Below are positions 19,895-20,630 of a stretch of DNA of 64,000 bases, piece after piece (position 1 is the first letter of the stretch; every line of letters begins with the position of its first letter). The position numbers and the translations under genes are program-made. Under the pieces are notes generated by a model, which was not told the origin of the DNA, did not search any database, and worked only from the letters and a program-made list of their open reading frames with translations. The DNA comes from Escherichia coli (GTDB lineage: Bacteria > Pseudomonadota > Gammaproteobacteria > Enterobacterales > Enterobacteriaceae), in NCBI RefSeq assembly GCF_050320075.1, contig NZ_CP190018.1; one strand, 5' to 3'.

Positions 19895-20350
19895 TTACAG
19901 ATAATTGCGGTAACTGTTATCCGGGGTGATTTCCGGGTCAGACTCCGTGCGGGGAATTTCCCGCCATTCCCGCGCCACCGGTGCCGCCCGGCTGACCGGA
20001 ACAGGGGCCTGCGGGTAAATATCCAGATATTTCTCCCGCCATTTCTGTAATTCCGGGTCTCCGGCCATTTCTTTCAGTACCGCATGCCGGTTTACGGGGC
20101 TGCGTTTAAACAGGTCAGGACGGTCACAGGTAAATTCCCGCAGAAAACGCCCCAGCGGGATGTCTGTGGTGCGTCCGTCAGCGAGGATACGCACAAGGAT
20201 ACTGAATTTACGGCGGTACGGGTTCCAGACAATGTCCGGGCAGCGGTACGGCATTTCCCACGGAATACCGTCTTCCAGAATGCCGACCACGGCCACATCG
20301 GGAAAACCGGCAGAACGGTAAATCTCACCGGGCTGGGGAAAATCAAACAT
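19895..20350 (-). CDS. hypothetical protein, 151 aa (same size and position as P4 orf151)
   Basis: ATG overlaps the stop of the upstream ORF (ATGTTTGA), indicating translational coupling. Confidence 0.65.
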   Translation of the reverse strand: MFDFPQPGEIYRSAGFPDVAVVGILEDGIPWEMPYRCPDIVWNPYRRKFSILVRILADGRTTDIPLGRFLREFTCDRPDLFKRSPVNRHAVLKEMAGDPELQKWREKYLDIYPQAPVPVSRAAPVAREWREIPRTESDPEITPDNSYRNYL

Positions 20351-20630
20351 GCGTCCTGTCTCCCCGGTCTTTCTGCTGGGCGAGAAAATCGCGGCACAGG
20401 CCTTTGGCTTTCAGCTCATTCAGCACAAAATCAATATCTTCATTCAGGTAGCTGAAAATATGCGGAATGTAGAGCTGATGCAGGCCGGAGAGTTCACGGT
20501 GAATCAAATCACCCCCAACAAACTGGGATACGGCGCTGGCGCGGTTGAGCTTATGGTAAGCCTCAATGCTGAGGTGTTCACGGGCGTCATGACGCGCTGA
20601 GACGGTCTGAGGGGCTTTTTTATTACGCAC
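20343..20630 (-). CDS. hypothetical protein, 95 aa with GTG start (P4 epsilon-like position)
   Basis: GTG at 20628-20630 preceded by GGAGG with 6-nt spacer; the upstream ORF's TAA lies inside GTGCGTAA; ORF track shows a longer 190-aa frame that would overlap the upstream gene. Confidence 0.5.

Follow-up and report, generated by a model that had tools for sequence, protein, structure and literature searches.

The epsilon gene of a P4-type prophage in Escherichia coli and its start codon

Introduction

The window analysed here is a stretch of 64,000 nucleotides of Escherichia coli DNA. Its ORF list contains a 190-aa ORF on the minus strand (20343..20915) that overlaps a 214-aa ORF (20623..21267, minus strand) in a different frame. 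Which protein does this region encode, and where does translation start? An earlier note on the sequence had pointed out the overlap and proposed a shorter gene: a GTG at 20628-20630, preceded by GGAGG 6 nt upstream, would give a 95-aa product, matching epsilon of phage P4 in size. The 190-aa frame is indeed in the ORF list, and the GTG and the GGAGG can both be read directly from the minus strand. Translation from this GTG to the TGA at 20345..20343 yields 95 aa. In the following, we present the evidence that the ORF is the epsilon gene of P4, and that the longest-ORF logic doubles its length and runs the ORF into the CI RNA gene.

Results and discussion

The ORF and its identity with P4 epsilon

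The features at the ORF are as follows.

20343..20630, minus strand: epsilon CDS, 95 aa plus the TGA stop (20345..20343); P4 helper-derepression (antirepressor) protein
20628..20630, minus strand: GTG start codon of epsilon, read from the sequence; site of a codon-phase switch and an ATG column in relatives
20637..20641, minus strand: Shine-Dalgarno motif GGAGG, read from the sequence, 6 nt before the epsilon GTG
19895..20350, minus strand: orf151, the next gene after epsilon; phrog_10748 matches residues 1-151 of 151, and the P4 annotation is ORF151

The minus strand around the epsilon start is ...GGTGGAGGTGTCCCGTGCGTAATAAAAAAGCC..., and a longer reading of the same strand at the start is ...CCGGTGGTGGAGGTGTCCCGTGCGTAATAAAAAAGCC.... 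The earlier note had placed the start exactly at the end of the upstream gene. This needs correction: the epsilon start and the upstream TAA (20625..20623) overlap by 8 nt, GTGCGTAA. At the other end of the gene, the ATG of orf151 (20350..20348) overlaps the epsilon stop, also by 8 nt, ATGTTTGA.

The ORF product is identical to P4 epsilon (NP_042039.1) at 94 of 95 residues. The sole difference is R36Q (R in P4, Q here), and Q36 is the consensus residue in the family alignments of 24 and 61 sequences. At the DNA level, 19800..21500 matches three phage P4 records (X51522, NC_001609 and X02534) with 99.0% identity over the full 1701 nt (megablast), and a 701-nt alignment with P4 around epsilon contains 2 substitutions. 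The matching CDS in NC_001609 is P4p09, 'helper derepression protein; epsilon gene product (AA 1-95)'; in X02534 it is annotated 'epsilon gene (aa 1-95)'. PGAP annotates the same 95-codon CDS in a near-identical E. coli chromosome. In Pfam, residues 1-95 correspond to profile positions 1-95 of PF25738, 'Derepression protein family' (E=7.7e-51; 170.3 bits against a cut-off of 27 bits), and in PHROG, phrog_10016 covers residues 1-95 of 95. PF25738 is the only Pfam hit; no match was found to other phage antirepressor families in Pfam (e.g. Ant, Bro/KilA-type), and searches of the protein with PADLOC (defence systems) and NCBIfam gave no hit. The alignment and the PF25738 and PHROG 10016 matches verify the assignment to P4 epsilon, which the earlier note had based on size.

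The ORF at 20343..20630 is the epsilon gene of P4. Its product is similar over its full length to P4 epsilon, above the curated PF25738 threshold; in the left operon the gene follows kil/eta and precedes orf151, cnr and alpha; and comparative evidence supports a product of ~95 aa whose start overlaps the upstream stop. It has the same length as P4 epsilon (NP_042039.1 / CAA26379.1), likewise starts at a GTG preceded by GGAGG, overlaps its two neighbours in the same way and occupies the same position in the left operon; it differs in having Q36 where the P4 reference has R36. The observation made in the earlier note is thus confirmed, and its interpretation of the ORF as P4 epsilon is supported. 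Epsilon was already annotated in the early P4 essential-region record X02534, so the copy here is a known gene. A passage in PMC2995052 places the identification of the epsilon product in 1997 (Liu et al., 1997, as cited there). For biology, a copy almost identical to the long-known epsilon is of little consequence, and the practical value of the assignment lies in annotation. In sampled RefSeq entries for the epsilon-carrying E. coli genomes described below, the product is mostly a 'hypothetical protein' and only in some cases a 'derepression protein'.

The start codon

Three features upstream of epsilon, and the stretch that distinguishes the 190-aa ORF from the 95-aa one, bear on where translation starts.

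20623..20820, minus strand: kil, 65 aa, in frame inside the 3' end of eta; from translation, with ATG at 20820 and TAA at 20625..20623
20623..21222, minus strand: eta, 199 aa (the region of the old 'ash' or 'cI 137 aa' ORF); PGAP, PF10554, phrog_6928
20875..20962, minus strand: CI immunity RNA (Rfam C4 family); RF01695, 74.9 bits, with a gathering score of 45
20631..20915, minus strand: 5' extension of the 190-aa ORF; longest-ORF artefact, non-coding in the epsilon frame

We took 64 related loci from viral contigs and compared their DNA at the epsilon start. The start is GTG in the P4-identical group of loci. In 14 divergent loci (L050-L058, L060-L067; 59-73% aa identity), ATG stands in the aligned start column. 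Most of the divergent loci have GGAGGTG before the start; the motif is weaker in L056 and L067 (GAGGTA) and in L057 (AGAGGTG). The stop/start overlap is also retained in the divergent loci, with 8-14 nt and the form ATGCnTAA or ATGCACACTGA.

The codon phase of sequence variation was then compared on the two sides of the start, as mean pairwise diversity per epsilon-frame position among 21 distinct sequences.

Upstream of the start (-198..-4): 0.08, 0.31 and 0.10 at epsilon-frame positions 1, 2 and 3
Downstream of the start (+9..+285): 0.18, 0.16 and 0.40 at epsilon-frame positions 1, 2 and 3

Epsilon-frame position 2 is position 3 of kil/eta. The upstream peak of diversity therefore falls on the third codon position of kil/eta, which indicates that the upstream stretch is constrained as kil/eta and unconstrained in the epsilon frame. 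As judged from this pattern in the aligned DNA, constraint in the epsilon frame begins at the GTG/ATG column. At the protein level, the alignments of 61 family members, most of them 93-99 aa long, begin at the same methionine. The kept ATG column with its motif and overlap, the codon-phase switch, and the Pfam and PHROG profiles that span residues 1-95 of 95 together make the start signal stronger than expected by chance.

Could the true product be the 190-aa protein, which would start at GTG 20915 and overlap kil/eta out of frame? No stop interrupts the frame from 20915 on, and in most relatives the epsilon frame is free of stops for ~200-330 nt upstream of the start. The variation in this stretch argues otherwise: upstream of 20630 it peaks at position 2 of the epsilon frame, a pattern that fits coding of kil/eta only. 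GTG 20915 is not kept in relatives, where the listed start codons vary by locus, and it lies inside the CI immunity RNA gene. Moreover, of the long form the Pfam and PHROG profiles cover only residues 96-190 (PF25738, 97-190), and the P4 records and PGAP annotate 95 aa. From the codon-phase pattern, the conservation of the start and the limits of the profiles, we conclude that the 190-aa ORF is a longest-ORF artefact, and the chance that it is the true product is negligible.

A start at another in-frame upstream codon is scarcely more credible. ATG codons at -45 and -81 nt, which would give a 110- or a 122-aa protein, are present both here and in P4, and in a few database entries the protein is called longer, at 102-156 aa. 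These ATGs are, however, missing in many diverged relatives, with none at -45 or -81 in L050-L057, and they are not preceded by a Shine-Dalgarno motif. The codon-phase switch sits at the GTG/ATG column, and the family members align from the methionine there, both of which speak against an upstream start. The earlier note's preference for the GTG over the longest ORF is borne out, with the comparative evidence and the PGAP call in the near-identical E. coli genome in agreement.

The upstream genes and the control of epsilon

With the GTG at 20630 as start, epsilon directly follows the kil/eta region. The names kil and eta are those of the P4 literature as summarised in PMC10111431. PGAP calls eta 'host cell division inhibitor Icd-like protein', and the C-terminal part of kil matches NF033153, an Icd-like cell-division-inhibitor model. 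The following regulatory features were also found.

21108..21160, minus strand: c4-a1b1, target sites of the CI RNA (Rfam)
21070..21147, minus strand: isrK-like leader RNA (Rfam)
21154..21183, minus strand: promoter-like TTGCCT-18-TATAGT from a consensus scan; weak match, with a scan count not above that of shuffles

The CI RNA, the isrK-like leader and the c4-a1b1 sites all lie inside or upstream of eta. The -10 hexamer of the TTGCCT-18-TATAGT site coincides with the 'consensus -10 sequence' of X02534 (2367..2372, equal to 21159..21154 in the window), and the site is probably PLE.

In P4, transcripts from a constitutive promoter inside eta terminate early through pairing of CI and seqA RNA (PMC10111431). 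Transcription of the downstream genes depends on read-through from an upstream late promoter, for which eta has to be translated (PMC10111431). According to this literature, epsilon would be silent in the lysogenic state, with the CI RNA causing early termination of the PLE transcripts upstream. It would be made upon read-through of the left operon, after infection or activation from PLL.

From the stop/start overlaps, translation of kil/eta, epsilon and orf151 is probably coupled from one frame to the next along the P4 left operon. A hairpin that would sequester the Shine-Dalgarno motif (CUCUCC...GGAGG) was considered as the basis of coupling and rejected. It is no stabler than its shuffled controls (z = +0.33 and +1.55), so the overlaps are the only feature that argues for coupling.

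The prophage and its chromosomal setting

The epsilon gene belongs to an element bounded by direct repeats, with the following features.

About 16764..28481: P4-type prophage carrying epsilon, with the 15-bp direct repeat TGGTGGAGCTGGCGG at 16764..16778 and 28467..28481
27095..28282: 395-aa tyrosine integrase, adjoining ssrA (28467..28829)
24350..27076, minus strand: 908-aa NTPase, between cos/psu and the integrase, a known defence hotspot of P4-like satellites

One copy of the repeat is the 3' end of ssrA, whose tmRNA is at 28467..28829. The element between the repeats is 11.7 kb long and located between ypjA and ssrA, an interval that in K-12 is occupied by the cryptic prophage CP4-57. Positions 16922..24112 of the window match P4 4469..11624 plus 1..31 with 98.5% identity. 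This block holds crr, alpha, cnr, orf151, epsilon, kil/eta, vis/alpA, ori, sid, delta, psu and cos. The P4 core genes are full-length: alpha (777 aa), cnr (106 aa, DUF5375), vis (88 aa), delta (166 aa), psu (190 aa), orf151, epsilon, eta/kil and sid; cos is present as well. The gene order of P4 is kept, with alpA/vis, eta/kil, epsilon, orf151, cnr and alpha on one side and, divergently, sid, delta, psu and cos. Whereas P4 carries int, cII, beta and gop, the element here, integrated at ssrA, has the 395-aa integrase and the 908-aa NTPase as cargo. The NTPase gave sub-threshold nSTAND1 and AAA_16 hits and a weak PADLOC match to PDC-S27 (E=2.6e-4), and no NCBIfam model matched it. We regard it as a candidate STAND-type anti-phage gene.

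On both sides the element is flanked by E. coli chromosome with 99.97-99.99% identity to strain YZLc1-3. One flank carries gabP-gabD-glaH, ileY and ypjA, and the other carries smpB, recN, grpE, ffh, clpB, an rRNA operon, kgtP and pssA. On the plus strand at 8808..8883 there is a tRNA gene that ARAGORN reads as Met (anticodon CAT) and that is a tRNA-Ile in the colinear RefSeq genome; as tRNA-Ile it would presumably belong to the ileY type, which carries a lysidine modification. Colinearity with YZLc1-3 places an IS3-family element (~58402..59750, plus strand) directly behind the 5S rRNA gene of the rRNA operon, with an IS1397-like transposase that has a programmed frameshift. Within the prophage, 16925..17045 holds a single 120-bp repeat of crr (cis replication region), of which P4 and the YZLc1-3 prophage each have two. 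The YZLc1-3 prophage is otherwise 99.9% identical to the one here, and the crr difference amounts to ~181 bp. Either a real deletion or a collapse during assembly could explain the single repeat.

Epsilon DNA is found in 992 of 5426 complete E. coli genomes, always on the chromosome, and 975 of the copies are at least 95% identical. P4-type delta-psu DNA is found in 1158 of the complete genomes. A further question is whether the gene, although intact, is idle, as a relic in a domesticated ssrA island that is never expressed or finds no target repressor in its host. Some P4-like elements at ssrA are degenerate cryptic prophages, CP4-57 among them. No P2-type helper prophage was found within the 64-kb window, and the crr region has one repeat compared to two in P4 and YZLc1-3. 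The state of the element points the other way: none of the P4 core genes, nor cos, is truncated, the att repeat is found at both ends, and the near-identity of epsilon DNA across the 975 genomes fits an actively spreading, selected element. We consider an idle epsilon improbable.

Function and predicted structure

The literature on P4 suggests what an active epsilon would do. The P4 protein (E) acts as an antirepressor and does not itself bind DNA (PMC2995052, citing Liu et al., 1997 and Eriksson et al., 2000). With the P2 immunity repressor C it forms a multi-subunit E-C complex that is unable to bind DNA, and this leads to P2 lytic transcription (PMC2995052). The P2 sos mutation (C Thr67Ile) abolishes the interaction of E and C, and c7 (Ile70) weakens it (PMC2995052). 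Derepression of a P2 prophage by epsilon is likewise stated in PMC7552001. By analogy, the epsilon protein here would bind P2 C in a complex that cannot bind the operator, so that a P2 helper prophage would be derepressed, and derepressed P2 would in turn give the P4 element access to the helper late genes. We are highly confident that the ORF encodes the epsilon protein of a P4-type satellite prophage at ssrA and starts at GTG 20630; its product is predicted, from the literature, to act on P2 C. No feature of the sequence speaks against this assignment.

An AlphaFold2 model of epsilon from 61 homologues has a mean pLDDT of 74 and contains helices at residues 22-48, 51-76 and 80-92. The N-terminus is of low confidence, with pLDDT <50 for residues 1-15 and no secondary structure before residue 22. 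The 95-aa protein is thus predicted to have a disordered N-terminal stretch of ~20 residues followed by three helices. A PDB sequence search with epsilon found no relative, and neither E nor the E-C complex has a structure in the PDB. A Foldseek search of the model against the PDB gave no significant match (best E=2.4). The three-helix model fits a small protein-binding adaptor and adds no mechanistic detail.

Breadth of the epsilon family

A word-indexed search found 91 clusters, nearly all of 79-99 aa with PF25738, from E. coli, Salmonella, Citrobacter, Enterobacter, Klebsiella, Serratia, Edwardsiella, Buttiauxella and others. In an exhaustive profile search of 1.84 billion cluster representatives, only 70 matched at E<=1e-3, and the names seen among the matches were all from Enterobacterales. 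Conservation in the family lies in the helical core; the first ~20 residues are variable and, in forms of 75-79 aa, absent. Across 61 aligned hits that are 51-98% identical to the query, S21, E23, K27, L28, R30, D65, V69, E72, L73, K74 and K76 are invariant.

The homologues in Enterobacterales (Salmonella, Citrobacter, Enterobacter, Klebsiella, Serratia, Edwardsiella, Yersinia and Providencia) are 71-113 aa long and have the helical core in common with the protein here, at profile positions about 17-95. In those examined as DNA (L050-L058, L060-L067), the start overlaps the eta stop, as it does here. They differ in having an ATG start where the gene here has GTG. Many have a 4-residue insertion in the N-terminal tail, giving 99 aa, and in the short ones of 75-79 aa the tail is wholly absent.

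Ash, epsilon and the protein in the epsilon slot

A survey of P4-like satellites (PMC8628076) refers to 'Ash (also called epsilon)' and uses PF10554 as the epsilon marker. In our analysis, PF10554 (Phage_ASH) matches the upstream eta (residues 37-161 of the 214-aa ORF, E=6.6e-24), and the 95-aa epsilon gave no hit to it. The two are also separate CDS in X02534, as 'put. ash gene' and 'epsilon gene'. Ash is therefore encoded by the adjacent gene in the epsilon operon, but it is a different protein. Since PF10554 detects eta/ash and not epsilon, statements on how widespread epsilon is may concern a different gene. The eta/ash region is found in 2837 of the 5426 complete E. coli genomes, many plasmid copies included.

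The same survey describes a 75-aa protein that is absent from P4 and lies between 'epsilon' and alpha in most P4-like elements (PMC8628076). Genuine short homologues of epsilon, of 75-79 aa, do exist, but in other Enterobacterales, and phrog_3688, a profile of 76 positions, matched epsilon weakly. In another P4-like lineage, we found a protein in the same place.

L071 5555..5776: 73-aa protein, phrog_10110, in E. coli PNUSAE145743 (NZ_CP132297.1), of another P4-like lineage

Like epsilon, this protein is encoded directly after eta, overlapping its end, and before cnr and alpha. The idea that the 75-aa protein is a diverged epsilon was rejected: between the slot protein phrog_10110 and the epsilon profile no similarity was detected (hhalign probability 0.1%), and PF25738 did not hit it. 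The phrog_10110 protein is a positional analogue of epsilon and might be an alternative antirepressor. More speculatively, and with rather low probability, the variable disordered N-terminal tail of epsilon and alleles of the Q36/R36 type could set which helper repressor is neutralised, or the 73-aa protein could be a hitherto undescribed antirepressor directed against another class of helper repressor.
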